A DNA stretch of 57,438 bases from a virus, in the IMG/VR virus record IMGVR_UViG_3300032356_000001. One strand, given 5' to 3'. The notes beneath the pieces were generated by a model. The model was not told where the DNA came from and did no database searches. It saw only the letters and a program-made list of their open reading frames with translations. Within the stretch, counting starts at the first letter, position 1. Each line of letters opens with the position of its first letter. Positions 928-54,465 of the stretch are shown here, in pieces. A program made the translations under genes and the position numbers.

Positions 928-1058
928 GCATGAGGACACGGAATCGGACGATTTCGGGTCATCCCGAAAGCGGGGCTGCGCTGGGCGCAACGAGGACGCG
1001 CCACTGTGCCCGCACGGACGCGGGCTGCGCCTAACCGCCACATATGGAGGACACTGCC

Positions 1059-2174
1059 ATGAAAGTTCAGCTCAATCGCAAGCAGTTTGACGATGCGTTA
1101 AGCGTTGTAGCGGGCGCGGCGTCGGCGCGCGCCTCGTTGCCCATACTCAGCCACCTCTATATCGAAGCGCAAAGCGACACCTTGCGCCTGGTCGGCAGCG
1201 ACCTTGAGCAGTGGGTGGAGTGCCGCATTCCCGCACTGGTCGGCGAGGACGGCGCGACGACGCTGCCCGCGCGCCTGCTGACCGAGCTGGTCGACTCGCT
1301 CGGTGGCGAGGACATCCACATCGAATCGGACGAGCGTTACCAAGCCATCCTGACCTGCGGCGACTCGCGCTACCAGCTGATGGGGCTGCTCGCCGAAGAG
1401 TACCCACCCATCCCCGACATCGAATCGTCCAGCGAACTCGCGCTGCCCGCCAAGCTGTTTCTGGAAATGGTCGAGTCAGTGGGGTTTGCCGTGCCCAAAG
1501 AGGGAATTAACCAGACACTGACGGGCATCCGCATGGAGTTCGAGGGCGACACGCTGCGCTTGGCGGCGACCGACACGCATCGCCTCGCCGTGCGCACGGC
1601 GCGTATCGATTCGGGCGCAGGCGAGCCGACCGCCGCGATTGTGCCTCTGAAAGCCATCCAGCTTGTGCGGAAAATCCCCGCAGGCGAGATGATTACTCTG
1701 CAACTGGGGCAGCATCGCGCCGCGTTTCTGGGCGAGAACGCCGCCGTCTACACGCAGCTGATTGAGGGACAGTACCCGAACTACCAGCGCGTGATTCCGC
1801 AGGAGTTCACTCGCCGCTGGGTGCTAATGGTGAAGGAGTTCCGCGACGCGCTGCGCCGCGCCCACCTCATCGCTAAGAACAACTCCACTGACGGTCACAA
1901 GACCTACACCAGCAAGGTCTATCTGCGCACTGAGAGCGATAGGCTGGTCATCACAGCGCAGAGCTGCGTCGGCGAGGCTAAGGAGACGATCGGTCTGGTG
2001 CGCGAAGGCGACGACCTCGAAATCACCTTCAACGCCAAGTATCTGCTCGATATGCTGGATGTGCTGGAGAGCGAAGAGGTTGCCGTCGAACTCACCGAGT
2101 CGTTGCGACCCGCCGTCTTCAGACCCGCTGATCAAACCGATTACCTGTGCGTGATTATGCCGATGTCGAAGTAA
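1059..2174 (+). CDS. dnaN: DNA polymerase III beta subunit (sliding clamp)
   Basis: N-terminus MKVQLNRKQFDDALSVV..ASLPILSHLYIEAQSDTLRLVGSDLEQ, about 370 aa with three-domain length. GGAGGA SD sits 7 nt upstream of ATG 1059. Confidence 0.9.
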   Translation: MKVQLNRKQFDDALSVVAGAASARASLPILSHLYIEAQSDTLRLVGSDLEQWVECRIPALVGEDGATTLPARLLTELVDSLGGEDIHIESDERYQAILTCGDSRYQLMGLLAEEYPPIPDIESSSELALPAKLFLEMVESVGFAVPKEGINQTLTGIRMEFEGDTLRLAATDTHRLAVRTARIDSGAGEPTAAIVPLKAIQLVRKIPAGEMITLQLGQHRAAFLGENAAVYTQLIEGQYPNYQRVIPQEFTRRWVLMVKEFRDALRRAHLIAKNNSTDGHKTYTSKVYLRTESDRLVITAQSCVGEAKETIGLVREGDDLEITFNAKYLLDMLDVLESEEVAVELTESLRPAVFRPADQTDYLCVIMPMSK

Positions 2175-2205: not shown

Positions 2206-3477
2206 ATGGCTGGTATGCAACTGAAAATCGATGAGACCATCCGCAGGGTACTTATGCCTCTGCGCGACGACGAACTGCAACTGCTGGAACAGTCGGTACT
2301 CGCCGAAGGCATCCGCGACCCGCTTGTCGCATGGAACCGCAACGGCGAATATGTGCTACTGGACGGACACCACCGCTACCAGCTTGCACATAAGCACGGA
2401 CTCACTTTCAGCACGATTGGTCTGCAGTTCAACAGCCGCGAGGAGGCGATTCAGTGGATACTCCAAAACCAGCTCGCCAGACGCAACCTGACCGACGAGC
2501 AGCGCACCATCGTCATCGGACGCTACTACAATATGCTCAAGCGAGCGCCTCATCGTCCCGCCGATAAGGGTGACAATTTGTCACCCTTATCCGAGTCGGG
2601 CAAGACGGCGGAGCAGGTCGCGACGGTCTTCGGCGTCGACTCGCGCACGGTCTATCGCGCCGCGGAGTTCGCTGATGCGTTCGAACAGTTAGAGTCGGTC
2701 TCGCCTGAGGCGGCGCGTCGCGTCGAATCGGGCGAAGTCAAGGACGCGAAGACCATGCTCCCGAAAATCGAGCCCGACCTGCTGCCGAAGGTCGCTGAGC
2801 GCATCGCAAGAGGCGAGACGCGCGTGCAAGACGCCGTCGAACGCATCCGACGCGAGGAGCGACAGACCACGAGACCTGTCTTGCAGGGCGTCTACGACGG
2901 ACTCGACATCCGACGCGGCGACTTCCGCGAAGTGCTGGCAGACCTGCCCGATCGTTCCGTCGACATCATCCTGACTGACCCGCCATACACGCAGGAGTAT
3001 CTCCCGCTCTGGGATGACCTCGGCGCGTTCGCCGCGCGGGTACTCAAACCGACGGGCGTGCTGCTTGCCTATAGCGGGCAGCTCCATCTCCCGCAGGTCA
3101 TCGCGATGCTCACCCAGCACCTGCGCTGGTGGTGGATGTGTGCTATCCAGCATACAGGCGCAAGTGGATACATCGTCGCAGGTGGACGACGCATCATCAA
3201 CGACTGGAAACCGCTCCTGATACTCACCCCGCGCGATGCGCCGCCGCTCAACGCGCAGTTTAACGATCTCATCGAAGGCGGTGGGCGGCAGAAGGAACTC
3301 CATAACTGGGAGCAGTCGACCGACGAGGCGGTGCGCATCCTGCAGACCTTCGGCAACCCTGACGCGCTCGTCGTCGACCCGTTCGCAGGCAGCGGGAGCT
3401 TCGGACGCGCCGCGCTGCAGGCGGGCATGCGATTCATCGGCGCGGAAATCCTCGCCACGGAAGGAGAGAGCCGATGA
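2206..3477 (+). CDS. ParB-N (ParB/Srx) domain fused to an N6/N4 DNA methyltransferase
   Basis: N-terminal GIRDPLVAWNRNGEYVLLDGHHRYQLA (ParB-like). C-terminal half has DIILTDPPYTQEY and VVDPFAGSGSFG SAM-binding motifs. AGGAGGA SD present. Confidence 0.85.
   Translation: MAGMQLKIDETIRRVLMPLRDDELQLLEQSVLAEGIRDPLVAWNRNGEYVLLDGHHRYQLAHKHGLTFSTIGLQFNSREEAIQWILQNQLARRNLTDEQRTIVIGRYYNMLKRAPHRPADKGDNLSPLSESGKTAEQVATVFGVDSRTVYRAAEFADAFEQLESVSPEAARRVESGEVKDAKTMLPKIEPDLLPKVAERIARGETRVQDAVERIRREERQTTRPVLQGVYDGLDIRRGDFREVLADLPDRSVDIILTDPPYTQEYLPLWDDLGAFAARVLKPTGVLLAYSGQLHLPQVIAMLTQHLRWWWMCAIQHTGASGYIVAGGRRIINDWKPLLILTPRDAPPLNAQFNDLIEGGGRQKELHNWEQSTDEAVRILQTFGNPDALVVDPFAGSGSFGRAALQAGMRFIGAEILATEGESR
2564..2590. 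promoter_or_regulatory. 27-bp perfect palindrome ATAAGGGTGACAAtTTGTCACCCTTAT inside the ParB-MTase ORF; its 26-bp core recurs at 37661-37686
   Basis: Read directly; arms are exact reverse complements around a central T. Confidence 0.8.
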
Positions 3478-3484
3478 GACGCCG

Positions 3485-5898: not shown

Positions 5899-6534
5899 AT
5901 GAGTTTCCAGCAGATTCACAGACCTGCTGACGGCGAACTCGTCACCGAGATGCGCAGTCTGCTAAGCCGAATCGCAGACCTGCGCCCGTTCTACCGCTAC
6001 GCCGCCAGTCGCATGCGTCAAGCGTTCCGCGAGAACTTCGCCGTCGGCGGACGACCCCCATGGCGACCGCTCGCTCCGTCGACCGTCGCAGCGAAACGCA
6101 TCATGGGGCTCCCTGCAGGGCTGCGCACGCCGTCGGGGCGCGTCCCGCGCCGACTCCTGCAGCGCGGGCAACTCAACGAGCGTACCATCCTCATCCTCAC
6201 AGGCGAGCTGCGCGACAGCGTCGCGCAGAAGAATCACCCACACCACATCACGCGCATCTCCAAAGACCGCGTCGAAGTCGGCACCTCGCATCCGCTCGCG
6301 CCCATCCACGAATTCGGCACGCGACCCTACTGGATCTACCCGCGACGCGCACGCGCACTCCGATTCGTTGATGCGAATGGACGCTGGGTGTATCGACGAC
6401 GCGTCTATCACCCTGGCGTGCCCGCGCGACCGTTCCTCAGGCTCACACAACAAGACGAGGACGACATCCACGACGCGCTCTTCGAATATCTTGTCGACGC
6501 CGTTATCCGACCCGACACAGAGGGACTGCTATGA
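5899..6534 (+). CDS. Phage virion morphogenesis protein (Mu gpG-like)
   Basis: WRPLAPSTVAAKR ... LILTGELRDSV ... VEVGTSHPLAPIHEFG matches the gpG/Phage_tail_S pattern. ATG 5899 (GTG 5896 also possible). Confidence 0.65.
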   Translation: MSFQQIHRPADGELVTEMRSLLSRIADLRPFYRYAASRMRQAFRENFAVGGRPPWRPLAPSTVAAKRIMGLPAGLRTPSGRVPRRLLQRGQLNERTILILTGELRDSVAQKNHPHHITRISKDRVEVGTSHPLAPIHEFGTRPYWIYPRRARALRFVDANGRWVYRRRVYHPGVPARPFLRLTQQDEDDIHDALFEYLVDAVIRPDTEGLL

Positions 6535-7325
6535 GTGACGAACTCCAACTCTGCACGGTCTACGAGAGCGATGTCTTCGACCTGCTCCGCAAGCTGCCCG
6601 ACCGCTCCGTCGACATGGTCTTTAGCGATCCCGACTACAATATGGGCATACGCTACAACGGGCGACGGCACAGGAAATCGTGGGACGACTACATCGACTG
6701 GTACATTCGGCTCGCGCGTGAGAGTCTGCGCGTGTTAAAAGACGATGGGAACGCTTTCTTCCTGAATATGCCGAAGCAGAACGCCTACCTGCGCGTGCGC
6801 TACCTCGACGACGCTTGCTACGATGTGCATGAGTACGCATGGTGCTACTCGCCCGATGTCGGGTTCAGCCCCTATCGGTTCACCACAGCGCACCGCACAA
6901 TCCTGCACGCGCGGAAGCAGAAGCGCACGCGCTGGTACAAGCACGCCGTCGTGCTGCCGTACAAGAACACGCGCGACAAGCGCATCCAGCGCACGCTCGC
7001 CGAAGGCTCGCCAGGACGCATGCCCTACGACTGGTTCCACATCGAGCTTGTCAAAGCAGGTTCGCGCGAGAAGACAATCCACCCGTGTCAGGTGCCGCGG
7101 CGGCTGTTTGAGCTGCTGCTCCGCGCGTCGACGCAGGAAGGCGACTTGGTGCTGGTGCTGTTCGGAGGCGCAGGCTCAGAAGTCGCTGTCTGCCATGAGC
7201 TGAATCGACGATGGCTCACTGCCGAAATCGACCCCGTGTACGCCGATCTGATTCGCAAGCGCGTCGCGCTCGGACGAATCCCAGACGAATACCGATGGCG
7301 ACCGAAAGGTACAATTCAGCGATGA
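6531..7325 (+). CDS. N6/N4 DNA methyltransferase (beta-class motif order)
   Basis: VDMVFSDPDYNMG (DPPY variant) followed by HPCQVPRRLFE..LVLVLFGGAGSE. Confidence 0.8.
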   Translation: MSDELQLCTVYESDVFDLLRKLPDRSVDMVFSDPDYNMGIRYNGRRHRKSWDDYIDWYIRLARESLRVLKDDGNAFFLNMPKQNAYLRVRYLDDACYDVHEYAWCYSPDVGFSPYRFTTAHRTILHARKQKRTRWYKHAVVLPYKNTRDKRIQRTLAEGSPGRMPYDWFHIELVKAGSREKTIHPCQVPRRLFELLLRASTQEGDLVLVLFGGAGSEVAVCHELNRRWLTAEIDPVYADLIRKRVALGRIPDEYRWRPKGTIQR

Positions 7326-8215
7326 GTGTCAAGTATCGTGTTTGGAAGGTGCGTCGGGATGGTGTGTCCCAGCGGTACAGGGTCGCGCCGACACGCGAGC
7401 ATAACGATGCGGTCACCGCAGTCATGAGCGGCGACCTCGCCAAGGCGAGATCGCGCAAGAAGCAGGAACTTGCACGGCAATTCCTGCAAGTCCCGTCGGT
7501 GCAGGAGTCGGTCTATCGCTCGCTGGTGCGACAGTATGAGGAAACAAACTCGACGGATGCGAAGCCGATGTTGTTCCTGAAATACTACTTGTCGCATGGG
7601 CATCCAGAGGCAGAGTCGCTGCTCGTGCGATTGGCGACCGAACCCTCCAACCTACATGTACGAGCCTCAGCTGTCCTTACGATGACGCTCTCTACGAATC
7701 CGCGTGTCCCGCGCTTGCTTCGCGAGGTTGCCGACAAGGCGCCCAACGAATGGACGGCTCGCTTCGCCATCGGCAAATTGGCAAGCTACCTTTTCATCAC
7801 GATGCAAGACATGATCGGTAAAGGAATCACGCCTGCAAGGGAGGCGGTACTCGATGCGATGGAGGCGCTCGGCATTGCGCTGCAAGGTAAGTGGGGCAGT
7901 CTCGAAGGCGAGATAACCTTCATCCTCGCCGCGTTGGACTACGAGCGGTGGAAATTCGAGAAGGCGGCTCACGGGCAGATACCCACTCGCGTTGAAAAGA
8001 CGGTTATCGACGGGCTGATGTCGCTTCTATCGTCAGGAGACTTGTCCACTGAGGTGTTCGATCGAACGCTAATAGTCATCAAGGAATGGCGATCAGAGTA
8101 CGCGCTCTCCAAGCTCCGTTCCTACTTGAGCGGTTCACTTCCGCACGAGCGTCGAGCGAAGGTTCTCGTCGCTATACAAGAGATAGAACACCGATCGAAG
8201 CGCAAGTCGAGATGA
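7322..8215 (+). CDS. HEAT-repeat protein, paralog 1, with the shared N-terminal tag MSVKYRVWKVRRDGVSQRYRVAPT
   Basis: ATG overlaps the methylase stop (ATGA). GGTACAATT (7310-7315) is 6 nt upstream. Repeats read LVRLATEPSNLHVRASAV..NPRVPRLLREVADKAPNEWTARFAI. Confidence 0.7.
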   Translation: MSVKYRVWKVRRDGVSQRYRVAPTREHNDAVTAVMSGDLAKARSRKKQELARQFLQVPSVQESVYRSLVRQYEETNSTDAKPMLFLKYYLSHGHPEAESLLVRLATEPSNLHVRASAVLTMTLSTNPRVPRLLREVADKAPNEWTARFAIGKLASYLFITMQDMIGKGITPAREAVLDAMEALGIALQGKWGSLEGEITFILAALDYERWKFEKAAHGQIPTRVEKTVIDGLMSLLSSGDLSTEVFDRTLIVIKEWRSEYALSKLRSYLSGSLPHERRAKVLVAIQEIEHRSKRKSR

Positions 8216-8226
8216 ACGTTGCGACG

Positions 8227-9039
8227 ATGAGTGTCAAGTATCGTGTTTGGAAGGTGCGTCGAGACGGAGTGTCCCAGCGGTACAGGGTCGCGCCGACACG
8301 CGAGTACGGTAAGTCGGTCGAGTCGATTGTCGTCAAGCAACTTCAGCACGCTCTGGAGACGGGTCAGCCCCCAGAAATCTCGCCCGCGAGCAACGACGGG
8401 CTGTTCCGCGTGTATGTCAACGCACTGGAGCGGAAGCTCGAACTGCAAGGAGACGCCGAGGCATATCAATTGCTGACTCCTCTCGAACCTTACCTCGCTC
8501 GTAATTTGCCTGAAGCGCATCGATTGATTGTCCGATTGGCAACCGAAGCGCCCCATCGGACACTGCGAAGCATCGCGATGGAGGTGTGCAAGCGTTCTGT
8601 GTACGAGACGCCCTCGCTGCTCAGCGAAATCGCGATTCAGTCACCTGATAGGTGGGGCGTGGACAAGGCGTTGAGAAATTTGCGAGAATACATAGACAAC
8701 GGATTGCGTTACCTCTTCGACACGCTTCTTCAGGGGAGGAAATTGAATGTAGACAAGTCAAAGTTCGAGCGCAGTCTCGTCAAGGGAATCGATGTGCTGC
8801 TCGACGGCTTGAACGGATTCGACGGGAAGTGGCAGATACCCGAATTGACTCTTAGCGGGTCAGTCGTCTGGATGCGCGACAATATTGGCGACATCCTTGA
8901 GCTACCGCTGACACAGAAGGTTCGTCGCAAGATGGAGCGCACGATGCAGGCAATCGCCAAGCGCGACGACCTCGATGATCAGGTACGCCACGATGCAGTC
9001 GGAGTGGCGCGGAAACTGCGGGAACGGCACGAATTGTAA
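8227..9039 (+). CDS. Tagged paralog 2: same N-terminal 26 aa, strongly diverged helical-repeat body
   Basis: The first 78 nt differ from paralog 1 at only 3 positions, then nucleotide identity stops abruptly. No own -10 box was seen. Confidence 0.65.
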   Translation: MSVKYRVWKVRRDGVSQRYRVAPTREYGKSVESIVVKQLQHALETGQPPEISPASNDGLFRVYVNALERKLELQGDAEAYQLLTPLEPYLARNLPEAHRLIVRLATEAPHRTLRSIAMEVCKRSVYETPSLLSEIAIQSPDRWGVDKALRNLREYIDNGLRYLFDTLLQGRKLNVDKSKFERSLVKGIDVLLDGLNGFDGKWQIPELTLSGSVVWMRDNIGDILELPLTQKVRRKMERTMQAIAKRDDLDDQVRHDAVGVARKLRERHEL

Positions 9040-9063
9040 GCAGGTCGGTACAATTCAGCAGCG

Positions 9064-9966
9064 ATGAGTGTCAAGTATCGTGTTTGGAAGGTGCGTCGAG
9101 ACGGGGTGTCCCAGCGGTACAGGGTCGCGCCGACACGCGAGCATGACGATGCGGTTATCGCTGTTATGAGCGACCGTCTCGCCACGGCGGAATCGCGCGA
9201 GGCGCAGGAACTTGCACGGAAACTCCTGCAGAATCCGTCGGTGCAGGAATTGCTCTATCGCTCGCTGGTGCGACAGTATGAGGAAACGAAGTCGTCGGAT
9301 GATGGGCCGATGTCGTTCCTGCAGCACTACTTGTCGCGCGGGCATCCTGGCGCAGAGGCGCTCCTCGTGCGATTGGCAACCGAACCCTCCAACTGGCATT
9401 TGCAATACGCAGCTGTCATTACGATAGCGAAATCTATGAATCCGCGTGCGCCGCGTTTGTTTCGCGAGATAGCCGACAAGGCGACCGACGAATGGACGGC
9501 TCGCTCCGCTATCTTCAACTTGGCAATCAATCTTAAAGTCACGATGGAAAACCTAATCGGTAAAGGAATCACGCCGACAAGGGAGGAGATACTCGATGCG
9601 TTGGAGACGCTCGGACTTGCGATGCAAGGCAAGTGGTTCGAGCCCAAACCCAAAGGCGAGATAAACCCCATCCTTGCCGCGTTGAACTACAAGCGTTCCG
9701 AATTCGAGAAGGCGACTCACGGGCAGATACCCACTCGCATCGAAGAGACGCTTATCGACGGGCTGATGTCGATTCTCTTGACCGAAGACTTGTCCACTGA
9801 GGCGTTCGATAGAACGCTGGATGTCATCAAGGAGTGGGGGTCAGAGTACGCGCTCTCCAAGCTCCGTTCTCTGTTGAGCGGTTCACTTCCGCACGAGCGT
9901 CGAGCGAATGTTCTCGACGCTATACAAGAGATAGAACATCGGCTGAAGCGCAATAGTAGTCAGTGA
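9064..9966 (+). CDS. HEAT-repeat protein, paralog 3, with shared N-terminal tag
   Basis: GGTACAATT (9049-9054) lies upstream; high nucleotide similarity to paralogs 1, 4 and 5 along the whole gene. Confidence 0.7.
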   Translation: MSVKYRVWKVRRDGVSQRYRVAPTREHDDAVIAVMSDRLATAESREAQELARKLLQNPSVQELLYRSLVRQYEETKSSDDGPMSFLQHYLSRGHPGAEALLVRLATEPSNWHLQYAAVITIAKSMNPRAPRLFREIADKATDEWTARSAIFNLAINLKVTMENLIGKGITPTREEILDALETLGLAMQGKWFEPKPKGEINPILAALNYKRSEFEKATHGQIPTRIEETLIDGLMSILLTEDLSTEAFDRTLDVIKEWGSEYALSKLRSLLSGSLPHERRANVLDAIQEIEHRLKRNSSQ

Positions 9967-10012
9967 ACTGCGGGAGCGGTACGAATTGTAAGCACGACGG
10001 TACAATTGAGCG

Positions 10013-10945
10013 ATGAGTGTCAAGTACCGTGTTTGGAAGGTGCGTCGGGATGGTGTGTCCCAGCGGTACAGGGTCGCGCCGACACGCGAGCATGACAGTG
10101 CGGTCGTCGGCGTCGTAAGCGGCGACCTCGCCTCGGCGGAGTCGCACAAGGAGCAGGAACTTGCACGAAAGCTCCTGCAGAATCCGTCGGTGCAGGAGTC
10201 GGTCTACCGCTCGCTGGTGCGACAGCATGAGAAAACGATCTCGACGGATGTGGGGCCGATGTTGTTCCTGCAAAACTACTTAGCGCATGGGTCTCCAGAG
10301 GCAGAGGCGCTGCTCGTGCGATTGGCGACCGAACCCTCCGACAGGAATGTACGATTCGCAGCTATCTATGCGATAGCGACCTCTATGGATCCGCGTGCGC
10401 CGCGCTTGATTCGCGAGGTTGCCGATAAGGCGCCCGACGAATGGACGGCTCGCACCGCCATCACCTACTTGGCAACATACCTTGAAGTCACGATGGAAAA
10501 CCTGATCGGTGAAGGAATCACGCCGACAAGGGATGAGGTACTCGATGCGCTGGAGATGCTCGGACTCGCGCTGCAAGGCGAGTGGTTCAGACCCGAAGAC
10601 GAGATACGCTACATCCTTGCCGCGTTGAACTACAAGCGTTCCGAATTCGAGCAAGCGGCTCACGGACAGATACCCGACAGCGTTGAAAAGCAGGTTATCG
10701 ACGGACTGATGTCGGTTCTCCCGATGGGAAGATTGTCCACCGAGGGGTTCGAGCAAACGCTGAATGTCATCAAGGAGTGGGGGTCAGAGTACGCGATTCG
10801 CAAGCTCCGTTCCTACTTGAGAGGCGCCATTTCCTTATTGAGAGACGCCATTTCGCAACAGCGTCGACGGATGGTTCTCGACGCTATACACGATATAGAA
10901 CAACGGCTGAAGCGCAAGTCGGTACAATTCGGCGATGAGCGGTAG
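10013..10945 (+). CDS. HEAT-repeat protein, paralog 4, with shared N-terminal tag
   Basis: GGTACAATT (10001-10006) lies 6 nt upstream of the ATG. Confidence 0.7.
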   Translation: MSVKYRVWKVRRDGVSQRYRVAPTREHDSAVVGVVSGDLASAESHKEQELARKLLQNPSVQESVYRSLVRQHEKTISTDVGPMLFLQNYLAHGSPEAEALLVRLATEPSDRNVRFAAIYAIATSMDPRAPRLIREVADKAPDEWTARTAITYLATYLEVTMENLIGEGITPTRDEVLDALEMLGLALQGEWFRPEDEIRYILAALNYKRSEFEQAAHGQIPDSVEKQVIDGLMSVLPMGRLSTEGFEQTLNVIKEWGSEYAIRKLRSYLRGAISLLRDAISQQRRRMVLDAIHDIEQRLKRKSVQFGDER

Positions 10946-11828
10946 GTATCAGGTACGGAAGGTGCGTCGGGATGGTGTGTCCCAACGGTACTGGGTCGCG
11001 CCGACAAGCGAGCATGACGATGCGGTTATTGCTGTCGTAAGCGGCGACCTTGCCACGGCGGAATCGCGCAAGATGCAGGAACTTGCACAGCAACTTATGC
11101 AAGCTCCGTCAGTGCAGGAGTCGGTCTATCGCTTGCTAATGCGACAGTATGAGGAAATTGGCACTTCGTATGCAAAGCCGATGTCGTTCCTGCAGCACTA
11201 CTTGTCGCGTGGGTATCCAGAGGCAGAGGCGCTGCTCGTGCGATTGGCGACCGAACCCTCCAACAGGCATGTACGAAGAGCAGCTATCGAAACGATAGCG
11301 ACCTCGACGAATCCGCGTGTCCCGCGCTTGATTCGCGAGGTCATCGACAAGGCGCCCGACGAAGACACGACTCGCTACGCCATCTTCTACTTGGCAACCT
11401 ACCTCAACGACACGATGCAGAATCTGATGACTCAAGGAATCACGCTTGCAAGGGAGGCGGTACTCGATGCGTTGGAGACGCTCGGACTTGCGATGCAAGG
11501 CAAATGGTTCGAGCCCAAAGGCGAGATAAGCAACATCCTCAACGCGTTGAAATACAAGCGTTCCGAATTCGAGCGGGCGGCTCAAGGGCAGATACCCGAC
11601 AGCGTTGAAAAGCAGGTTATCGACGGGCTGATGTCGGTTCTCTCGTTAGGAGACTTGGCTAATGAGGCGTTCAAGCAAATGCTGGGTGTCGTCGAGAAGT
11701 GGGGCTCAGAGTACGCGCTCTCCAAGCTTCGCTCTCTATGGAGCGGTTTAAGTTCGAAACGGCGTCGAGATATGGTCTTCGACGCTATGAACGAGATAGA
11801 ACACCAGCTGAAGCGCAAGTCGGGATAA
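10935..11828 (+). CDS. HEAT-repeat protein, paralog 5, with tag variant MSGRYQVRKVRRDGVSQRYWVAPT
   Basis: GGTACAATT (10923-10928) lies 6 nt upstream; 11-nt overlap with paralog 4. Confidence 0.7.
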   Translation: MSGRYQVRKVRRDGVSQRYWVAPTSEHDDAVIAVVSGDLATAESRKMQELAQQLMQAPSVQESVYRLLMRQYEEIGTSYAKPMSFLQHYLSRGYPEAEALLVRLATEPSNRHVRRAAIETIATSTNPRVPRLIREVIDKAPDEDTTRYAIFYLATYLNDTMQNLMTQGITLAREAVLDALETLGLAMQGKWFEPKGEISNILNALKYKRSEFERAAQGQIPDSVEKQVIDGLMSVLSLGDLANEAFKQMLGVVEKWGSEYALSKLRSLWSGLSSKRRRDMVFDAMNEIEHQLKRKSG

Positions 11829-11852
11829 ACGCGAGAGCGAGTGAGTTATCGG

Positions 11853-11858
11853 TATAAT
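11853..11858 (+). promoter_or_regulatory. -10 box (cGGTATAATTg), leaderless class
   Basis: 8 nt upstream of ATG 11867. Confidence 0.55.
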
Positions 11859-11866
11859 TGCACGGC

Positions 11867-12532
11867 ATGTCGCGGCGGAACCAACAGACGACGGCGCGTG
11901 TTGTGAGTGACGAGCCTATCTGCGATTGTGCGGATGAGCATCGCCTCGATGTTCATCTCGAAAGCGCGGATGGGTATCCAGCGGTTGCGAACCTCTGTAC
12001 CCGATGCGGGCGGATACATCGCTTGCCCGCGAACGCGCGTGTGCGCGAGCGTCACGATGAAGACACAGAGACCGAGCGCATGTTGAATCGCGTCTTGTCA
12101 GCGGATCGCGCCAACGCCCATCGTCTGCAAGAGGAGATGCTCGAATTGTACGAGCGCATCGAGCGCGAGCGCGACGAAATCGAGCGACGCGTCGAGATGT
12201 TCAGGCGACGCTACCCGCAGCCGCCCGTGCAGTCCACGGCACATTACCGTGACGCGCTCGCACAGTACGAAGCGGACATCGAGCGACTCCGCGAACTGGA
12301 GATGGCGGAAGCGCACGCTAACGAAACGCTCGGTATGCTCGGCATGCAGGAAGACCCAGACCCTGAGCAGTTCGAGCGCGTTCGAGCAATCGCGGGTATG
12401 CCGAGCCTTGACGCTACGATTCCGTCAGAACCTGACGACGCCACGCCAGACGCTATCCCATCGGAAGCGGAAACGACAGATTCGGAAGCGACGGATGCGA
12501 CTGCCAATACTGACCGTAGGTATTCTCCGTGA
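11867..12532 (+). CDS. Hypothetical coiled-coil protein with an N-terminal Cys cluster (CDC...CTRC) and an acidic tail
   Basis: ORF 11858-12532 trimmed to the ATG; E/R-rich heptad-like region. Confidence 0.55.
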   Translation: MSRRNQQTTARVVSDEPICDCADEHRLDVHLESADGYPAVANLCTRCGRIHRLPANARVRERHDEDTETERMLNRVLSADRANAHRLQEEMLELYERIERERDEIERRVEMFRRRYPQPPVQSTAHYRDALAQYEADIERLRELEMAEAHANETLGMLGMQEDPDPEQFERVRAIAGMPSLDATIPSEPDDATPDAIPSEAETTDSEATDATANTDRRYSP

Positions 12533-14453
12533 TACCGATTCGCAGTGGCATCCCCTGTGTCTTCTGTCGGAACTGTGCGTCCCAGTCGCCATCCCAGCCG
12601 GTCTCCCCGTCCGTTAGCACCAGCACGCCGCTGTACCCGCCCTCTTCATCCCTCTGGCGCGGCACGATTAATTTCTCGACGGCTTGCACGAGACTACCCG
12701 TCACATCCGTGCTGCCCGATACCTGCAGCTGCTTCGCGATGTCTTTAGTTCGACTGCGCAGTTCCTCAGCGCCAACCTCAATCGCGCGTTCAGCGTGCAG
12801 GGATCCCGTGAACGGCACGAAGGTGAACCGCACGCCCTCATCCGCGCCAGAGTTCTCGGCGAGGTCTTGCATGTGCCCCAGAAACTTGCTGAGCATCGCG
12901 TCGTCTATGGAGCCCGACGCATCGACGAGTACCAGTATACGCATCGAGTCGCGTCTTATCCCGCGCGGGAGCAGCACATTCCCGACGGCGAGCTGTGACG
13001 GGTGTCTGCGCCCGATGGCGATGTTCGGACGCCATCGCCTTGCGAATCCCATCGACTCGCTCATAAACTCGCGCAGCACCTGTTGCCAATTCACGCGGCG
13101 CATGCCTCGAATCGCGCTGATGAGACGCTGCGCGTCTGCGCTGCCCTTGCCAGCCTTCCGACCCGTCTCCTCCGACGCCGCGTGCGACTCGCGTGCCGTG
13201 CGGTTCCGCTCACGCTCCATGTATTCCTCAGGCGTCATGCCCGATTCTGCCGCGCGACGCTCGACCGTGCGACGCACCAGCTCATGATTCTCATCCAGCA
13301 TGTCGCTCCCCAGCGGATTCTGGGATGCCTGCTTGCCTGTTGCCCCGCTCGACTGCGACTGCGATGACTGCTGCGTCTGACTCCCGCTTGACTGCGACTG
13401 CGACTGCGATTGCGACGACTGCTGCGACTGCTTCCCGCCCGACTGCGACTGCGACGACTGCTGCGACTGACTCCCGCTCGACTGCGACTGCGACGACTGC
13501 TGCGACTGCTTCCCGCTCGACTGCGATTGCGACGACTGCTGCGACTGCTTCCCGCTCGACTGCGACTGCGACGACTGCTGCGACTGCTTCCCGCTCGACT
13601 GCGACTGCGACGACTGCTGCGACTGCTTCCCGCTCGACTGCGACTGCGACGACTGCTGCGACTGTGCCTCTGCGATTTGGTTCCTCGCATGCGTGCGGTA
13701 GTTCGACTCCCACGGCAGGTAGGGATCGCAATCCTCAAGCTTGTGTATTGCCCAATCGAAGTTCGCTTCTGACGAGACAACACGCGCCTCGCGCATCGAC
13801 TTCAGCAGCCCCTCGATGAGCGTGTTGATTTCCAAGTCCGCTACATCGTTGAATACCGAGTGCGGACTCGCGCCTGCTCGTTCCAGCTCGCCGATAATAT
13901 CGCGATTGAGACGCTTAAAGTCATCGAATCGTGGGAAGTGGGTGAGCGCGAGGTGCAGCGCCTCGTGCAACAGCACCACCTGCACCATGTCGACGGTCGC
14001 CCGCACGCGGTCGGACTCGCTTATCTCCTGTCCCGTGCGTTTCTGGTGCTGTTCCGCCATGATTTTCGGTATCTCGCGCGTCACGAAGTCTGGCGAGATG
14101 TAGAGGTGTCCGAACGGGTCGACCGCCATCGTATCCAGTTCGTTCGTGTAGACAATCTTCTGGAACGGGAGCAAGCGTGACAGGGACGGGAACACCGAGC
14201 GCAGTCGTGTGAAGGCGTTCCCGACGATTTCCTGCGCTCGCGCCAGAGACTGCGAAGGCGATGCAGGCGCGGGTTCCGACGGCGTCCCAGACCCCGCGCG
14301 GGCATGCACGGCAGACTCAGGGAGTACCCAGTACCGCCGTTGGAACACCCCGTGCTGCCCGTGCACCATGTGCGGTTCGGGATGGAGCCTGCCCCCGTGC
14401 GACGGGTCGCTCAGGATGACCGAATCCCACCAAACCACGCGCGACTTGCTCAT
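12453..14453 (-). CDS. Zn-metallopeptidase-like (HExxH) + von Willebrand A domain protein (DUF2201-like) with the N-terminal shared tag and an SQ-rich repeat linker
   Basis: Motifs VLLHEALHLALTH, MIDAS VLVDASGSID and ...LVLTDGETGW. ATG 14453 is preceded by GGAGAGG and TGGTACAAT (14466-14471). Confidence 0.8.
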   Translation of the reverse strand: MSKSRVVWWDSVILSDPSHGGRLHPEPHMVHGQHGVFQRRYWVLPESAVHARAGSGTPSEPAPASPSQSLARAQEIVGNAFTRLRSVFPSLSRLLPFQKIVYTNELDTMAVDPFGHLYISPDFVTREIPKIMAEQHQKRTGQEISESDRVRATVDMVQVVLLHEALHLALTHFPRFDDFKRLNRDIIGELERAGASPHSVFNDVADLEINTLIEGLLKSMREARVVSSEANFDWAIHKLEDCDPYLPWESNYRTHARNQIAEAQSQQSSQSQSSGKQSQQSSQSQSSGKQSQQSSQSQSSGKQSQQSSQSQSSGKQSQQSSQSQSSGSQSQQSSQSQSGGKQSQQSSQSQSQSQSSGSQTQQSSQSQSSGATGKQASQNPLGSDMLDENHELVRRTVERRAAESGMTPEEYMERERNRTARESHAASEETGRKAGKGSADAQRLISAIRGMRRVNWQQVLREFMSESMGFARRWRPNIAIGRRHPSQLAVGNVLLPRGIRRDSMRILVLVDASGSIDDAMLSKFLGHMQDLAENSGADEGVRFTFVPFTGSLHAERAIEVGAEELRSRTKDIAKQLQVSGSTDVTGSLVQAVEKLIVPRQRDEEGGYSGVLVLTDGETGWDGDWDAQFRQKTQGMPLRIGITENTYGQYWQSHPSLPNLSFPLPMG
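13351..13664. repeat. About 8 tandem copies of a 39-bp unit (gactgcgactgcgacgactgctgcgactgcttcccgctc), in frame, encoding (SSGKQSQQSSQSQ)n
   Basis: Read directly; copies differ by a few substitutions and one 6-bp insertion. Confidence 0.9.
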
Positions 14454-17068: not shown

Positions 17069-17387
17069 GAGACGCTCCATGAGGAGTATACGCCGTCGAG
17101 ACCAGCGCATCGACTCGCGAGACCAAATCCGTGTCGCTTGGCGCGTCGCTGTTGCGCACCTCATCCGCAAGCACATCGATGAGACCGACCAGCACCATCC
17201 ATGGCGAAGTGTCGGTGTCGCCCTGATACGACTCGGCTAAGTCCAGCAGGTGCTGTAGCAGCTCGCGCGGATTCGCATCGCCCAGACGCGCCATGGCGCA
17301 TGCGACGCCGACATCACGGACACGCTCCAGCAGCGCGTCGATGTCCTCAACCTGCAGAATCTCCTGCACAATCGGCGGTTGTCTCAT
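17040..17387 (-). CDS. Acidic hypothetical protein (115 aa) immediately downstream of the sigma factor; anti-sigma or adaptor role is speculative
   Basis: ATGA start/stop overlap with the sigma gene; D/E-rich. Confidence 0.55.
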   Translation of the reverse strand: MRQPPIVQEILQVEDIDALLERVRDVGVACAMARLGDANPRELLQHLLDLAESYQGDTDTSPWMVLVGLIDVLADEVRNSDAPSDTDLVSRVDALVSTAYTPHGASHANRYIESD

Positions 17388-17875
17388 TGAAGCCTCCGAC
17401 GAATCGATTCGATGACTGTCTCCAGATACCTGCTGCTCATGCCCAGCTCGCGTCTGATATCCGAGCGCGATTGACCCGACACGAGCCGTTCCGCCACCTC
17501 ACGCTCCTCTGGCGGCATCACTGCCAGAGTCGCCGTCCATTCCATAGCATCATCCGTCGCCTCAGCGTGCATCGCACACATGATATCCCATTCGTTGTAG
17601 GCAATCTCCTTCCGCTTGCGCAGGTAATCCCGACCCGTGTTCGCAATCGCGCGGCGGATATACCGCTCTGCGCTCTCTAATCGGATACGCGGCGCGTTCA
17701 CCCACAGTTTCACTGCGACCTCGTTCGCCAGCGACTCCGCCTCGTCGGACTCGATATGGTACGCCTTGAGATACCATGCGAACGCGCAGTCCCGCACACG
17801 CTCCGCAAACAGGTCGTACTCGCAGGTCTCATGACCGCGCTCCAAAGCGACGAGCATCTCCCGCCATCGCGTCAT
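17384..17875 (-). CDS. Sigma-70 family (ECF-like, regions 2 and 4) sigma factor
   Basis: Region 2-like YIRRAIANTGRDYLRKRK. Region 4-like MPPEEREVAERLVSGQSRSDIRRELGMSSRYLETVIESIRRRL. Confidence 0.7.
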   Translation of the reverse strand: MTRWREMLVALERGHETCEYDLFAERVRDCAFAWYLKAYHIESDEAESLANEVAVKLWVNAPRIRLESAERYIRRAIANTGRDYLRKRKEIAYNEWDIMCAMHAEATDDAMEWTATLAVMPPEEREVAERLVSGQSRSDIRRELGMSSRYLETVIESIRRRLQ

Positions 17876-17876
17876 C

Positions 17877-18305
17877 TCACCACCCGCTCCCCGTGCGACG
17901 CACACTCCGAATGCTCCGCACGGGCGTCGGCTGCGACTGCGGCGCAAAGACTGGGAGCATCCACTCGACCGACTCGCCCAGCACATGCGCCCAGCCCCGT
18001 TCCAGTCGCTGCAACTCGTCTTCCGCCTGCTGATACAGCTGCTGTGCGTAGGGGTTCATAGACGCGCCGACGTTGGTTATCGCCAGCGTTCGCGCCTCCA
18101 CCAGCGCCGCCGCCAGCTGCATCGTTATCGTCGGTATCGGCGGTTTCGCAGGCGCGTCCGTCACCATCATGCGCGGGTACAACCGCACCAAGCGCGAACG
18201 GATGTACGATTCCGCAGCATCGATAGCCGCCTGCAACACGGAATCGTCTATCGGCTCCAGATTCCGCACATAGAACCGCACTTGCGCTGGCGTCACCCAC
18301 GACAT
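17877..18305 (-). CDS. Head-tail connector/adaptor protein (Mu gp36/DUF1320-like)
   Basis: MSWVTPAQVRFYV..IDDSVLQAAIDAAESYIRSRLVRLYP pattern; sits directly downstream of the MCP. Confidence 0.55.
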   Translation of the reverse strand: MSWVTPAQVRFYVRNLEPIDDSVLQAAIDAAESYIRSRLVRLYPRMMVTDAPAKPPIPTITMQLAAALVEARTLAITNVGASMNPYAQQLYQQAEDELQRLERGWAHVLGESVEWMLPVFAPQSQPTPVRSIRSVRRTGSGW

Positions 18306-20007: not shown

Positions 20008-21000
20008 CTAAATCTCGCGTGCGGCGCGTTTAATCGCCTCACCGAAGGCGATGCCCTCGCTCGCGGCGACGCGCTCAGCGCGTGCGATGAGTTCGCGCGT
20101 GGTGCGTTCCTCGCCCGTGCGTAGCGTGTACCGTAGCGGCTGCTCCGACAGGTTCACGCGCGGGCGGTTCGGAACCATCTGCGCGACCTCTTCGAGTATC
20201 GCGAGTACGAAGTCCTCAACGGGAACTCGCGCGTCCGACGACGCGTTCTCGCTTAGACGCACAATCCGCGACTCGGGCATCTCCGAGCGCACATCCGACA
20301 GCGACACTGCACGACCGCGCAGCGAGTCGAAGATGTACCGCGCGAGACGCAGCATTGACGGCGGAACGGCATGCTCGTACTCCGACAGGAGCAAGTCCCT
20401 GTCCGATTCCCACTGACGCTCCTCAAGCTCCGACAGACGCACTCGCAAATCGCGAACCTCGTCCTGTGGTACGGTTCCTTGCGTATTCATCGAGTTGTAG
20501 CCTCCCTGATGTGTTGCAGTTCGAGCGCGTTCCGATAGCGTGACCACTTGTGCGGGATCCATGCGCTTGATATACGGGCGGTTCGTCAGAGCGACCGCGC
20601 GGAGCGCGGTGACCTCACGGCGCGTCTCAGGATCTCGCCCGCGCACCGTCAGCTCCGCACTGGCAAACCGCAGACGACCATCCCGCACGCGGTCGAGAAC
20701 CTCGTCGGCGGTCGGTCGAATCGTCGCGTACAGCGATTCGCCTTGACGCTCCAGCGCCGTTACCCATCCGACCGCGTCGGTCGAATCGTCCATGTGGTTC
20801 AGATTGACGGGCAGCTCGTACCCGAACACCCCGTCGCGGAAGTTCCGAACGATTTCGTCCAGCTCGCGTTCCGTGACGACGAGGCGCCCCTCAGGCGCCA
20901 TCTCGTGCAGCCATTCGCCCGTGCGAAGCACCTCCACGCGAATCGCAGGGCGCGACCCGCGCGTTACCGTCTCCGCATCCGACAGTGTCACGACTATCAT
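20008..21000 (-). CDS. Mu gpI-like prohead protease/scaffold protein
   Basis: ELPVNLNHMDDSTDAVGWVTALERQGESLYATIRPT...LRFASAEL matches the Mu-like prophage I pattern. GGGAG SD precedes ATG 21000. Confidence 0.75.
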   Translation of the reverse strand: MIVVTLSDAETVTRGSRPAIRVEVLRTGEWLHEMAPEGRLVVTERELDEIVRNFRDGVFGYELPVNLNHMDDSTDAVGWVTALERQGESLYATIRPTADEVLDRVRDGRLRFASAELTVRGRDPETRREVTALRAVALTNRPYIKRMDPAQVVTLSERARTATHQGGYNSMNTQGTVPQDEVRDLRVRLSELEERQWESDRDLLLSEYEHAVPPSMLRLARYIFDSLRGRAVSLSDVRSEMPESRIVRLSENASSDARVPVEDFVLAILEEVAQMVPNRPRVNLSEQPLRYTLRTGEERTTRELIARAERVAASEGIAFGEAIKRAAREI

Positions 21001-21069
21001 TCTGCGCTCCCTAAACGAAGCAGGCGGTGCGCTCGCATGATGCAAGCGCACCGCCTGCTACATCGACCA

Positions 21070-37291: not shown

Positions 37292-37320
37292 CGCCGCGCG
37301 TTAGCCTTTGCGAGCGGATG

Positions 37321-37376
37321 ACTACATGTCAACCACATGTCGACTACATGTCAACCACATGTCGACTACATGTCGA
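37321..37376. promoter_or_regulatory. Array of five ACATGT hexamers at exact 11-bp spacing (2.5 copies of a 22-bp unit ACTACATGTCAACCACATGTCG)
   Basis: ACATGT begins at 37324, 37335, 37346, 37357 and 37368. The array lies 33-85 nt upstream of the tail-operon -10 box. Confidence 0.85.
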
Positions 37377-37766: not shown

Positions 37767-38927
37767 GTGGAACTGACCGTTGTCGCCAAACTTGACCTGT
37801 CGCAACAGGATAAGGAGCGGTTGGAACGAACGCTCGAAGTGTTCGCCGTCGCCTGCAACGCCATCAGTCAAGTGGCATTTGCCGAGCGATGCTTCCATCC
37901 CGTCGCTCTTCAGCAACTGACCTACTACGACATCCGACAACGGTTCAACCTCCTCGCTAATTATACCGTCCGTGCCATTAGCCGTGTGGCAAAAGCATAC
38001 AAAACCGCCAAAGCCAAGAACCAACCCCTGAAACTTCTGACCTTCAAAGTCCAATCGTTGGATTTGGACGCGAGACTCTTCCGACTGTTTCTGAAAGACG
38101 ACGAAGTTTGGGTGAGCCTCGCGGCTTGCGACGGAAAACGAATCAAGTGCCCTGTCAAGGTCGGGCAACGCTACCTGCCAATCCTCAAAGCCTCCAACCC
38201 GACTTCTGCAGTTCTCAAACGCCACAGGGACGGAGAACTCTACCTGCATATCGCTGTTTCTGTTCCAGTCCCTAAGCCGAGCGACCCGCCACAGAATGTT
38301 GTCGGTGTTGACCTCGGCGAGATTGACTTGCTTGTGGCTTCTAACGGTGTTAAGATTTCGGGTGTAGAATCGATTGAGCGGCGCAAGCGGTTCCGTGCCC
38401 GACGGAGTATCCTTCAACGCAAAGGCACGAGAGCCAAACGGGCTCGGACACGGCTGGGCGATAAGGAACGCCGTTGGGCACGCAACTACTTGCATACCGT
38501 TAGCCGTCGCTTCGTCGATAGTCTCCCACCCAACAGCCTCGTTGTGCTGGAAGACCTCGGCGGTATCCGCGATCGCTGTAAGCGTCGCGGCGCCGAGCAG
38601 CGGGCGCAGTTCCACACTTGGGCGTTTCGGCAACTCCAGTTTATGATTGACTACAAAGCCCGATTGGCGGGTCATCAAGTGGTGTTCGTTAGACCCGCCT
38701 ACACTTCGCGAACTTGTCCTCGCTGTGGTCATGTCAGTTCTTCCAATCGTCTAAGTACCCGTCTATTCCGTTGCCAGCAGTGTGGCTTCCAGCACAACGC
38801 TAACTTTGTTGCATCCATAAACATTGCTACTCGTGCCGTCCAAGCGGGCTTGGGCGGTGCTGGGCTGCCGTCAACCAGCCTCAGGCTGAGAGAGTTCCAT
38901 CCTCTCTCAGCAAACTGTCGGCTTTAG
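37767..38927 (+). CDS. tnpB: TnpB (RuvC-like, OrfB_Zn_ribbon) with the third catalytic Asp replaced by Asn
   Basis: RuvC-I VVGVDLGE, RuvC-II LVVLEDLG, zinc ribbon CPRCGH..CQQCG. The RuvC-III position reads QHNANFVASINIA where NADxNAAxNI is expected. Confidence 0.85.
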   Translation: MELTVVAKLDLSQQDKERLERTLEVFAVACNAISQVAFAERCFHPVALQQLTYYDIRQRFNLLANYTVRAISRVAKAYKTAKAKNQPLKLLTFKVQSLDLDARLFRLFLKDDEVWVSLAACDGKRIKCPVKVGQRYLPILKASNPTSAVLKRHRDGELYLHIAVSVPVPKPSDPPQNVVGVDLGEIDLLVASNGVKISGVESIERRKRFRARRSILQRKGTRAKRARTRLGDKERRWARNYLHTVSRRFVDSLPPNSLVVLEDLGGIRDRCKRRGAEQRAQFHTWAFRQLQFMIDYKARLAGHQVVFVRPAYTSRTCPRCGHVSSSNRLSTRLFRCQQCGFQHNANFVASINIATRAVQAGLGGAGLPSTSLRLREFHPLSANCRL

Positions 38928-50550: not shown

Positions 50551-51021
50551 TCAGGTCTTCGCCGTCATTTTCGCTGCAGTCGCGCGGTTCTGGATTTCGG
50601 CAACCGCGCGTCGCTGCTGTCGTAGCACCTCCTCGGCGTGTCGCTTGTGCCCTTCGGCGCGGGCGCGGAGCCATCGCTCGATGCGCTCCAGCCAGCGCAC
50701 CGCGGCAAGCACGCGCGAGGGATAGCCGTTGAGCTTGTCAACGATAGTCTCGGCATCCTCGCGATTGCCATTGAAGGATATTGTTCGTACACTGCCCCCG
50801 ACATGCATTTCTATCCCGTCGAGCTGCGGCTCGTCGGACATGAAACGCTTTGCAGGGTACACGAACTGCACTCCGCCGAGGCGCAGTTCGAACCGCTTCA
50901 GCCGCCCACGAGGCACTCGTGGGAAGGTGTGCGCCTCATACGCTTTGCGTGCCTCGTTGCACGCCTGCAAAGCGTCGTGGAGCGCAGTAACCATCGCCTC
51001 TCTGAGTTTAGGCTCACTCAT
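50551..51021 (-). CDS. Hypothetical protein (156 aa)
   Basis: AAGGAGGTGG SD; start overlaps the VWA gene stop. Confidence 0.55.
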   Translation of the reverse strand: MSEPKLREAMVTALHDALQACNEARKAYEAHTFPRVPRGRLKRFELRLGGVQFVYPAKRFMSDEPQLDGIEMHVGGSVRTISFNGNREDAETIVDKLNGYPSRVLAAVRWLERIERWLRARAEGHKRHAEEVLRQQRRAVAEIQNRATAAKMTAKT

Positions 51022-54358: not shown

Positions 54359-54465
54359 GCACCCCGCAAATTTACCATATTTTGGGTTTACCCCATAGGG
54401 ACTTGACTTTCGCGTCTCCGATGTGGTATAATATAGACAGGCTGGATACCAGCCGAGGAGGAGAC
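54330..54465 (+). promoter_or_regulatory. Early promoter module C (inverted, diverged copy of A/B): TTGACT-18nt-TATAAT
   Basis: -35 at 54403-54408, -10 at 54427-54432, same UTR hairpin ggctggataccagcc and the same GAGGAGGAGACATGATG. Confidence 0.7.

Follow-up and report, generated by a model that had tools for sequence, protein, structure and literature searches.

Amplified multigene families built on repeat scaffolds are found in poxviruses, which carry ankyrin/PRANC proteins, and in giant viruses, which carry ankyrin, Sel1, and TPR proteins; the number of copies varies between strains. In the T-even phages, the internal proteins are diverse apart from a common capsid-targeting sequence, and at least one of them, IPI*, is injected and inhibits a restriction enzyme of the host (PMC3012670). 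In alphaRep, positions 18, 19, 22, 23, 26, and 30 are naturally variable, are randomised in binders, and lie on a concave interaction face (PMC3754942). Here we describe a tandem array of five paralogous HEAT-like genes, p1 to p5, at 7322-11828 on the plus strand of a 57,438-nucleotide (nt) stretch of viral DNA, IMG/VR record IMGVR_UViG_3300032356_000001 and ENA contig k141_204867 (the window; positions refer to it unless another contig is named). We read the array as an accessory, fast-diversifying family of small HEAT-like solenoid binding proteins of an uncultured tailed phage with a Mu-like head module, and we give this reading about an even chance of being correct. We favor it because the number of copies varies, because the bodies of the proteins evolve fast on a conserved scaffold, and because a short N-terminal segment, which we call the tag, is nearly invariant.

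The array lies directly downstream of a gene for an N6/N4 DNA methyltransferase (6531-7325, +; Pfam PF01555, expectation value (E) 8e-29), whose stop codon overlaps the start codon of p1 as ATGA. Type A paralogs comprise p1 (7322-8215, +; 297 amino acids (aa), a long copy in which a basic N-terminal hairpin tag is followed by a HEAT-like solenoid), p3 (9064-9966, +; 300 aa), p4 (10013-10945, +; 310 aa), and p5 (10935-11828, +; 297 aa). The second gene, p2 (8227-9039, +; 270 aa), is a short, divergent type B copy that carries the common tag. An earlier note on this DNA, made from its letters alone, had described five consecutive plus-strand paralogs of 270-310 aa behind a methyltransferase, and the list of open reading frames (ORFs), our alignment, and Pfam all agree with it. 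The type A genes are 80-84% identical in DNA and 65-72% identical in protein; that protein identity falls below DNA identity points to many non-synonymous changes. The p2 gene shares only ~31% protein and 47-49% DNA identity with the other copies. Its first 84 nt are exceptional, being 79-94% identical to theirs, and with this one reservation the note was right that four copies are alike at the nucleotide level and the second has diverged. Two features make p4 longer: 21 nt are duplicated in tandem at 10810-10854, and the frame reads through into a tail that shares 11 nt with p5. The p3-p4 spacer and the 3' end of p2 are homologous. The G+C content of the array is 0.56, compared with about 0.61-0.63 around it, and its G+C content at third codon positions (GC3) is also lower than that of neighboring genes.

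Given the HEAT-like repeats reported in the note, we compared the proteins with Pfam and with predicted structures. HEAT_2 (PF13646, gathering score 27.7 bits) matches p1 at 29.1, p3 at 34.8 (E 2e-8), p4 at 32.2, and p5 at 30.4 bits, in each case over residues ~92-154 alone; p2 has no HEAT_2 match that passes the gathering score. The AlphaFold model of p3, made with a 65-sequence alignment, has a predicted local distance difference test (pLDDT) value of 89.5 and a predicted template modeling score (pTM) of 0.84. It places strands at residues 5-10 and 16-21 (pLDDT 56-70), followed by 15 helices. The model of p2 (pLDDT 86.9) shows the same layout of a hairpin and a solenoid, and both models are all-helical after residue 24, with the helices stacked in pairs. 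The best Foldseek matches in the PDB are alphaRep, APC-ARM, p115, CAND1, and designed helical repeats, all with E of at least 1e-3 and TM-scores of 0.3-0.5, and a search of the viral structures in BFVD returned giant-virus repeat proteins alone, weakly (E of at least 7e-3). According to these models, the array proteins are an N-terminal beta-hairpin plus an alpha-solenoid, without a specific structural relative. The proposal that they are paralogous HEAT-like alpha-solenoid proteins is thus supported by HEAT_2 in four copies, by AlphaFold, and by Foldseek, and structure prediction, which could have spoken against it, yields an alpha-solenoid for both p3 and p2. Remote-homology searching recovered generic HEAT, ARM, and alphaRep folds, but no relative that brings a function with it.

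The most conserved part of these proteins is the tag, the first 27 residues (MSVKYRVWKVRRDGVSQRYRVAPTRE), which is identical in p1-p4. The p5 tag is 78% identical to it (6 of the 27 residues differ) and has the clade-consensus variant Q6, R8, and W20. The tag is common to A-type and B-type copies, whose bodies share only 31% identity; its core, [VI]RRDGVxQRYW[VI]xP, is the best conserved segment of the family, with R11, D13, G14, Q17, R18, and Y19 invariant, and its net charge is +4 to +6 in 27 residues. Within a genome the tags resemble each other across types: those of p1-p4, the B-type p2 among them, all have R6/W8/R20 in place of the Q6/R8/W20 seen in other genomes, and all five copies of a related phage, L002, share T16. 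Likewise, the proportion of synonymous differences (pS) between A-type and B-type copies is 0.30 in the tag versus 0.62-0.75 in the body. This concerted behavior of the tags within genomes points to recombination or gene conversion at the 5' ends of the genes. Gene conversion alone cannot explain the conservation, however, since all four paralogs of a distant relative, L014, have diverged deeply and still keep [VI]RRDGV.QRYW[VI].P, in tags that are preceded by 5-8 variable residues.

We also considered whether the 5' segment is conserved as RNA and rejected this: it has no Rfam match, and a hairpin over codons 13-23 is found in some copies, the mean folding z-score is -0.76 (near 0 for the window copies), and substitutions break its pairs without compensation. 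A twin-arginine or secretion signal was set aside by inspection, as no hydrophobic segment follows the RR.

The rates of change were compared between body, tag, and flanking genes. In pairs of A-type copies, the ratio of non-synonymous to synonymous differences (pN/pS) is 0.59-0.89 in the solenoid body and 0.37 in the tag. A tree-based count of the corresponding substitutions (dN/dS) gives 0.67 overall and 0.34 in the tag, and finds 49 codons that are individually under purifying selection. The flanking genes are far more constrained, with pN/pS of 0.09 for a gpG-like gene, 0.14 for an 83-aa ORF, 0.20 for the gene downstream of the array, and 0.29 for the methyltransferase; their synonymous divergence is similar to that of the array copies. 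The array proteins thus change fast while their scaffold is conserved.

Entropy exceeds 2 bits at a few dozen positions, which recur every 3-4 residues along the helices, with peaks at 111/115/119/123, 148/151/152/155/158/159, 201-210, 240-253, and 274-284. In a weak hhalign alignment with an alphaRep sequence (E 0.031), family positions 111, 112, 115, 119, and 123 fall on alphaRep 18, 19, 22, 26, and 30. The hypervariable positions would then be in register with the alphaRep binding face, which we regard as supportive rather than conclusive. The net charge of the body also shifts between paralogs, from -8 to +7.

A word-indexed search of 5.8 billion proteins returned 71 clusters, all metagenomic and all of the array family, and the clade is rare in this collection (about 13 lineages). 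In the relatives, the array is flanked by the methyltransferase, with 86-95% identity, and by a 221-aa downstream gene, with 77-94%; what differs is the content of the array. The order is A-B-A-A-A in the window and in L002 (five copies), A-B-A-A in L010 (four), A-B-A in L012 (three), and A-A in L003, L004, and L005 (two); L013 has two copies, B-A, and has lost the methyltransferase. L011 has A-B followed by a frameshifted third copy (L011 11791-12681), which is split over three reading frames and is a pseudogene, with intact genes on either side. Two partial contigs, L006 and L007, hold at least four and at least three copies. Related phages therefore have two to five copies between conserved flanks, the copy-number variation that the earlier note had suggested looking for, and this comparison of loci also bears out its placement of the array in an accessory region, here at a variable position. 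B-type orthologs are present in most relatives. Array copies reach 65-90% identity to their best match in another genome, and copies at the same position across genomes are not each other's closest relatives, indicating that the array has been reshuffled.

An exhaustive profile search of 1.84 billion representatives (38 matches) added three full-length relatives, all on contig L014; its other matches beyond the phage clade are generic HEAT proteins aligned at profile positions ~92-160. The order on L014 is a gpG gene, the methyltransferase, two small ORFs, four HEAT paralogs, the downstream gene, and convergent genes for a VWA protein and an 888-aa protein. Identity among the L014 paralogs is 22-54%, and with the window copies it is 25-34%. 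Since four such deeply diverged paralogs are kept at the same locus, the array and its tag are old, and several distinct copies have been retained for a long time.

Searches for a relative with a better known role were negative. Among 50,697 GenBank phage records, the locus has no megablast match and p3 has no tblastn match. PHROGs gave no significant match, virion and structural families included, sequence searches of the PDB gave no match to any solved structure, and PADLOC and NCBIfam gave only matches at chance level (E of at least 3e-4 over short stretches). The DNA_alkylation family (PF08713, cut-off 21 bits) comes closest without reaching its threshold, with 19.3 bits for p3 (E 0.001) and 13.4 bits for p1 (E 0.064); p2, p4, and p5 have no match to it. 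A diversity-generating retroelement was rejected as the source of the variation: a Pfam scan of 38 ORFs shows no reverse transcriptase domain, and the changes affect many codons along entire paralogs instead of a single variable repeat.

Leaderless genes with promoters that consist of a -10 element only have been described in Deinococcus, Actinobacteria, and other lineages. The sequence GGTACAATT occurs five times in the window compared with 0.12 times expected by chance, and four of these boxes precede array genes: at 7308-7316 (+) for p1, within the last codons of the methyltransferase; at 9047-9055 (+) for p3; at 9999-10007 (+) for p4; and at 10921-10929 (+) for p5, inside the 3' end of p4. 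The TACAAT hexamer ends 6, 9, 6, and 6 nt before the respective ATG, matching the 6-9 nt given in the note for these four paralogs; from there, transcription would be expected to begin at the start codon or no more than about 3 nt away from it. No Shine-Dalgarno sequence and no -35 element accompanies the boxes of p1, p3, p4, and p5, and a two-hexamer sigma-70 scan has no match at them because the -35 element is absent. The wider form GGTAnAAT has 18 sites genome-wide, compared with 1.4 expected. On both strands of the window, 18 of 40 TAnAAT hexamers precede the start codon (ATG or GTG) of a long ORF by exactly 6-9 nt, and most other offsets hold 0-1 sites. Examples from the TAnAAT/GGTAnAAT scan lie at 3484, 4311, 5629, 11852, 37753, and 44357 on the plus strand and at 892, 5621, 28086, 29401, 37292, 37580, and 44344 on the minus strand. 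This spacing suggests that leaderless expression is the general style of the phage rather than a peculiarity of the array. In relatives, the array hexamer varies at its third position alone (TACAAT, TATAAT, TAAAAT), and it is kept even inside the methyltransferase frame where the encoded residues change. As judged from these patterns, a leaderless, -10-only promoter is a credible interpretation of the box and ATG.

The p2 gene lacks a -10 box. The stop codon of p1 (8213-8215) stands 11 nt ahead of the p2 ATG and is part of a Shine-Dalgarno-like GAGATGA within the p1-p2 junction (8205-8226, +); with no box of its own, p2 is probably translated by coupling or from an internal ribosome-binding site. 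A comparison of 13 related loci distinguishes two kinds of junction. Type I reads ...GTCGGTAnAATT-N5-8-ATG. Type II reads ...GTCGGGGTGA-N11-ATG, with the stop codon of the previous copy inside a Shine-Dalgarno-like GGGGTGA (GAGATGA in the window); it makes up about 40% of the junctions in relatives, where it recurs as GGGGTGA-N11-ATG. In the distant phage L014, all four copies have Shine-Dalgarno-like or ATGA-coupled starts. The idea that most paralogs have their own leaderless promoter accordingly holds for the layout at p1, p3, p4, and p5, but the layout is not specific to the array and is interchangeable with a coupled junction.

Of the roles put forward in the note (host-takeover factors, decoys or inhibitors of host defense, or packaged cargo), the data favor an accessory one in which the proteins would bind targets. 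How such an array could work can be outlined. In this reading, each protein joins the basic hairpin of about 27 residues to a solenoid of about 270 residues, conserved in its structural core and hypervariable at exposed helix positions. Each paralog would use its solenoid surface to bind a different, or a differently evolving, target, most plausibly a host protein such as a defense or takeover target. The common hairpin would give every paralog the same second interaction, which may be docking to a shared partner, localization, or contact with nucleic acid. Unequal recombination would expand, contract, and reshuffle the array, helped by the near-identical 5' segments of ~84 nt; the phage encodes a RecT-like recombinase, and the 5' homology would serve unequal crossing-over. 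Each copy would be expressed as the first cistron of its own leaderless transcript, from the GGTAnAAT box 6-9 nt before the ATG, or alternatively through coupling to the previous copy at a Shine-Dalgarno-like stop-start junction.

Several observations weigh against this reading. The argument for a binding face draws on helical periodicity and on the weak hhalign register (E 0.031). Although changes in the array are fast, dN/dS is below 1, and a site-wise test (parsimony plus binomial, of low power, over ~300 sites) flags 6-9 sites as having an excess of non-synonymous changes (p<0.1), no more than expected by chance; we do not claim positive selection at individual sites. With these two results, relaxed constraint cannot be cleanly separated from diversifying selection. 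Promoter activity and leaderless translation of the array copies are read from the DNA sequence. No homolog with a studied function appears in PHROGs, GenBank phages, the profile search, the PDB, PADLOC, or NCBIfam, and genome-contig scans with the HEAT family and with the TnpB of the phage find no relative that points to a host.

A tag-like segment may not be limited to the array. The gene for a VWA/DUF2201 protein (12453-14453, -) adjoins the array and lies downstream of the head genes, and beside it is the gene for a protein of 872-908 aa (14255 to ~17050, -). In all relatives, L014 included, the two proteins have in common an N-terminal module of ~50 residues, RVWW..V..S...LHPE..VH...Q..YWV. 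Over 19 columns, hhalign aligns the last part of this module (..VH...G..Q..YWV.PE) with the tag at a probability of 69% (E 4e-5). In a search with a hidden Markov model (HMM) of the tag, the VWA protein is the top non-family match, at a non-significant E of 0.19, and the reverse search is not significant either (E 0.69). With the profile-profile comparison suggestive and both HMM directions non-significant, we keep a tag shared with the VWA and 872-aa proteins as a lead only; the sequences are compatible with an N-terminal signal common to several proteins of the phage but do not establish it. The VWA gene also contains a 39-nt tandem repeat of ~8 copies (13344-13664, -) that encodes a Ser/Gln-rich stretch, (SQSQSSGKQSQQS)n, and the VWA protein in relatives is 600 to 650 aa long as called.

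The most direct competitor of the binder reading holds that the hairpin is a capsid- or scaffold-targeting signal, and that the HEAT proteins are packed in the head, enter the host together with the DNA, and act immediately against host defenses. We consider this possible but doubtful. It would account for a constant N-terminal tag on a variable body, and it has a precedent in the T4 internal proteins (PMC3012670). The position of the array, behind a gpG-like gene and converging on a late block with a Mu-type protease and portal, also fits, as does the tag-like N-terminal module on two large proteins near the head genes (hhalign 69%), although that similarity is non-significant in the two HMM searches (E 0.19 and 0.69). 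The array proteins have no homology to T4 internal proteins or to PHROG virion proteins, and the L014 tags have 5-8 variable residues in front of them. No cleavage motif is known for Mu-type proteases, which also counts against cargo, and the tagged-cargo version of the binder idea is only weakly supported. A bolder combination, to our minds unlikely, would make the array a binder library with a common handle, in which each solenoid recognizes a different host protein, for example another defense system, and the hairpin links all of them to one machine. That machine might be the capsid interior, with the hairpin as a new capsid-targeting signal also borne by the VWA and ~900-aa proteins, or it might be a phage or host machine of the AAA+/protease type, such as the MoxR-VWA pair of the phage, with the HEAT proteins as substrate adaptors. 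Recombination at the 5' cassette (promoter or ribosome-binding junction, ATG, and tag) would then gain, lose, and swap specificities.

Other explanations do without a binding repertoire. The copies could be neutral or decaying duplicates, generated by unequal recombination and drifting under relaxed constraint without distinct functions: dN/dS is high but below 1, copy number is unstable, one copy in L011 is broken into three frames, and the G+C content (0.56 versus about 0.62) and GC3 are lower than in the neighbors. Decay on this scale is hard to reconcile, however, with intact frames of 270-310 codons in about 30 sampled copies, with 49 sites under significant purifying selection and an almost invariant tag, with conserved -10 boxes, and with the four paralogs that L014 retains at 22-54% identity, and we think it quite unlikely. 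It is more improbable still that these are DNA-directed HEAT-like proteins working with the methyltransferase, as AlkD-like binders, modification cofactors, or DNA shields whose hairpin contacts DNA. The sub-threshold DNA_alkylation matches of p3 and p1, the tag charge of +4 to +6, and the coupling of p1 to the methyltransferase through the ATGA overlap would all suit such a role. Against this stand the PF08713 scores themselves, which are below 21 bits and missing for p2, p4, and p5, the absence of any AlkD-type glycosylase from the top 50 structural matches, and body charges that range from -8 to +7; moreover, L013 has two copies without the methyltransferase, and in L014 two extra ORFs separate the methyltransferase from the array. 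We see the least merit in a structural or assembly component (head decoration, tail-fiber chaperone, or scaffolding), which is highly improbable: the array does adjoin a gpG-like gene and the structural block, but a copy number of two to five with one pseudogene, evolution 3-10 times faster than that of neighbors such as gpG, and the lack of a match to any PHROG structural family do not suit a building block of the virion.

The surroundings of the array are those of a tailed phage. On its right, a box, GGTATAAT (11851-11858, +), precedes the 221-aa gene, which runs from an ATG at 11867 to 12532 (+) and encodes a zinc-ribbon-like, coiled-coil, acidic protein that forms 13 clusters at 90% identity in the database. 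On the other side, the array stands behind the Mu gpG-like virion-morphogenesis gene on the same strand, and it converges on the late structural block. The head and packaging genes comprise a Mu-type portal, a Mu-type prohead protease (20008-21051), the gpG-like protein, and a large terminase. Compared with cultured phages, the portal reaches only about 23% identity, and no Mu transposase is seen among the annotated genes. Genes for DNA transactions encode RecT, ParB-N, an SNF2 helicase, a beta clamp, three DNA methyltransferases, and TnpB, and others encode a holin, a MoxR AAA+ ATPase with a DUF2201/VWA partner, and a small sigma-70-region-2-like protein. The window has no tRNA genes.

A HEAT_2 protein is also encoded far from the array, at 54768-55571 (+; 267 aa; Pfam E 3e-10, 40.6 bits), by a gene that starts with GTG behind a Shine-Dalgarno sequence. 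The note had listed it as a sixth, untagged HEAT-like gene. It is genuinely HEAT_2 and has no tag, but it is not a demonstrable member of the family: hhalign against the array family gives a probability of 7.8% (E 0.0045), and we rejected it as a sixth paralog in favor of a generic HEAT relationship.

Promoters of other kinds occur in the window. The fifth copy of GGTACAATT (56725-56757, +) is preceded at 18 nt by a perfect TTGACA. Located inside a minus-strand helix-turn-helix (HTH) gene with no ORF start downstream, this copy could be an antisense promoter or simply a match by chance. Classical TTGACT-N18-TATAAT promoters with leaders are found at 54402-54470 (+) and about 50395-50330 (-). 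These are two near-identical cassettes, TTGACTTTC.CGTCT..GATGTGGTATAAT followed by a GGCTGGATACCAGCC hairpin and then GAGGAGGA, each at the head of a different operon, and they look like co-regulated, perhaps early, promoters. A small ORF (17384-17986, -) weakly matches Sigma70_r2, with an E of 5e-4 that does not reach the cut-off, and a DNA polymerase III beta clamp gene lies at 1044-2174 (+), with no polymerase among the scanned ORFs. It is speculation, but the -10-only boxes raise the question of a late transcription scheme like that of T4 gp55/gp45.

Elsewhere, the gene for the MoxR AAA+ ATPase (52621-53679, -) is followed by one for a DUF2201_N metallopeptidase-like/VWA protein (51014-52624, -), forming a canonical MoxR-VWA pair; this VWA protein is additional to the one beside the array. 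The three methyltransferase genes, at 2206-3477, 6531-7325, and 42398-43420, fall into the N6_N4 type (two genes) and the D12 class (one), and three DNA methyltransferases in a 57-kb phage suggest strong pressure from host restriction. A TnpB/IS605 OrfB-like gene (37767-38927, +) encodes a Cas12f1-like TNB domain (E 1e-22) in a stretch of lower G+C; its GTG start comes 7 nt after GTACAAT, and an 11-nt repeat, GACTACATGTC, is present ~5 times nearby, at 37320-37376. Finally, the non-coding region beside the HTH regulator gene (55997-56914) contains 2.8 copies of a 21-nt tandem direct repeat, GTTCCACATGTGACGCGAGGA (55754-55811), and two copies of GTGGGGAATT (at ~55909 and 55961), which may be operators or iterons.

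No family except generic HEAT_2 covers the array proteins, and no described phage system matches them. The view that no standard phage module explains the array is consistent with this, given the lack of a PHROG, GenBank-phage, or known-function match. If the proteins are indeed target-specific binders, the array would be a compact, naturally diversified repertoire of repeat proteins in a tailed phage, and the locus could supply candidate anti-defense proteins whose specificity positions are marked by their variability. If the hairpin is a targeting signal, it would be a reusable element of 27 residues. In a phage that begins many genes without leaders, the -10 box, ATG, and conserved 5' segment would make each duplicate self-sufficient for transcription and translation, which may explain why such arrays expand easily. 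Because the clade is rare, the immediate practical impact is modest.

Compared with known systems, the closest likeness in fold is to the PBS-lyase-type HEAT_2 proteins and alphaRep. They share the solenoid of two-helix repeats, with four array copies above the Pfam threshold and alphaRep among the best Foldseek matches; the hypervariable array positions may also be in register with alphaRep 18/19, 22, 26, and 30, as a weak alignment suggests. Unlike them, the array proteins have about two repeats that are recognizable in sequence, the rest of the solenoid being idiosyncratic; they add a basic N-terminal beta-hairpin, and their full-length relatives are found only within this phage clade in the exhaustive profile search. 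In its start signals, the phage resembles the leaderless genes of Deinococcus and Actinobacteria, with TAnAAT 6-9 nt before the start and neither a Shine-Dalgarno sequence nor a -35 element, but it differs from those lineages in also having TTGACT-N18-TATAAT promoters with Shine-Dalgarno leaders and a sigma-70-region-2-like protein.

In organization, the T-even internal proteins IPI, IPII, and IPIII are similar in that they form accessory gene clusters that vary between related phages and encode proteins in which a short N-terminal segment is conserved and the rest diverges. They differ in having no relationship in sequence or fold to the array proteins, whose bodies are mutually homologous (one fold, diversified) and whose tag is a structured hairpin of 27 residues rather than a peptide of ~10 residues. 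The poxvirus and giant-virus families share with the array the tandem amplification of repeat-scaffold paralogs and a variable recognition surface, and those of poxviruses also have a constant terminal adaptor; in contrast, they belong to eukaryotic viruses, use another type of repeat, and have a constant module that is F-box-like and C-terminal. We found no phage HEAT arrays in the literature searched, and a HEAT binder repertoire in a phage would thus appear to be new, while its arrangement is one that is well known from poxviruses and giant viruses.

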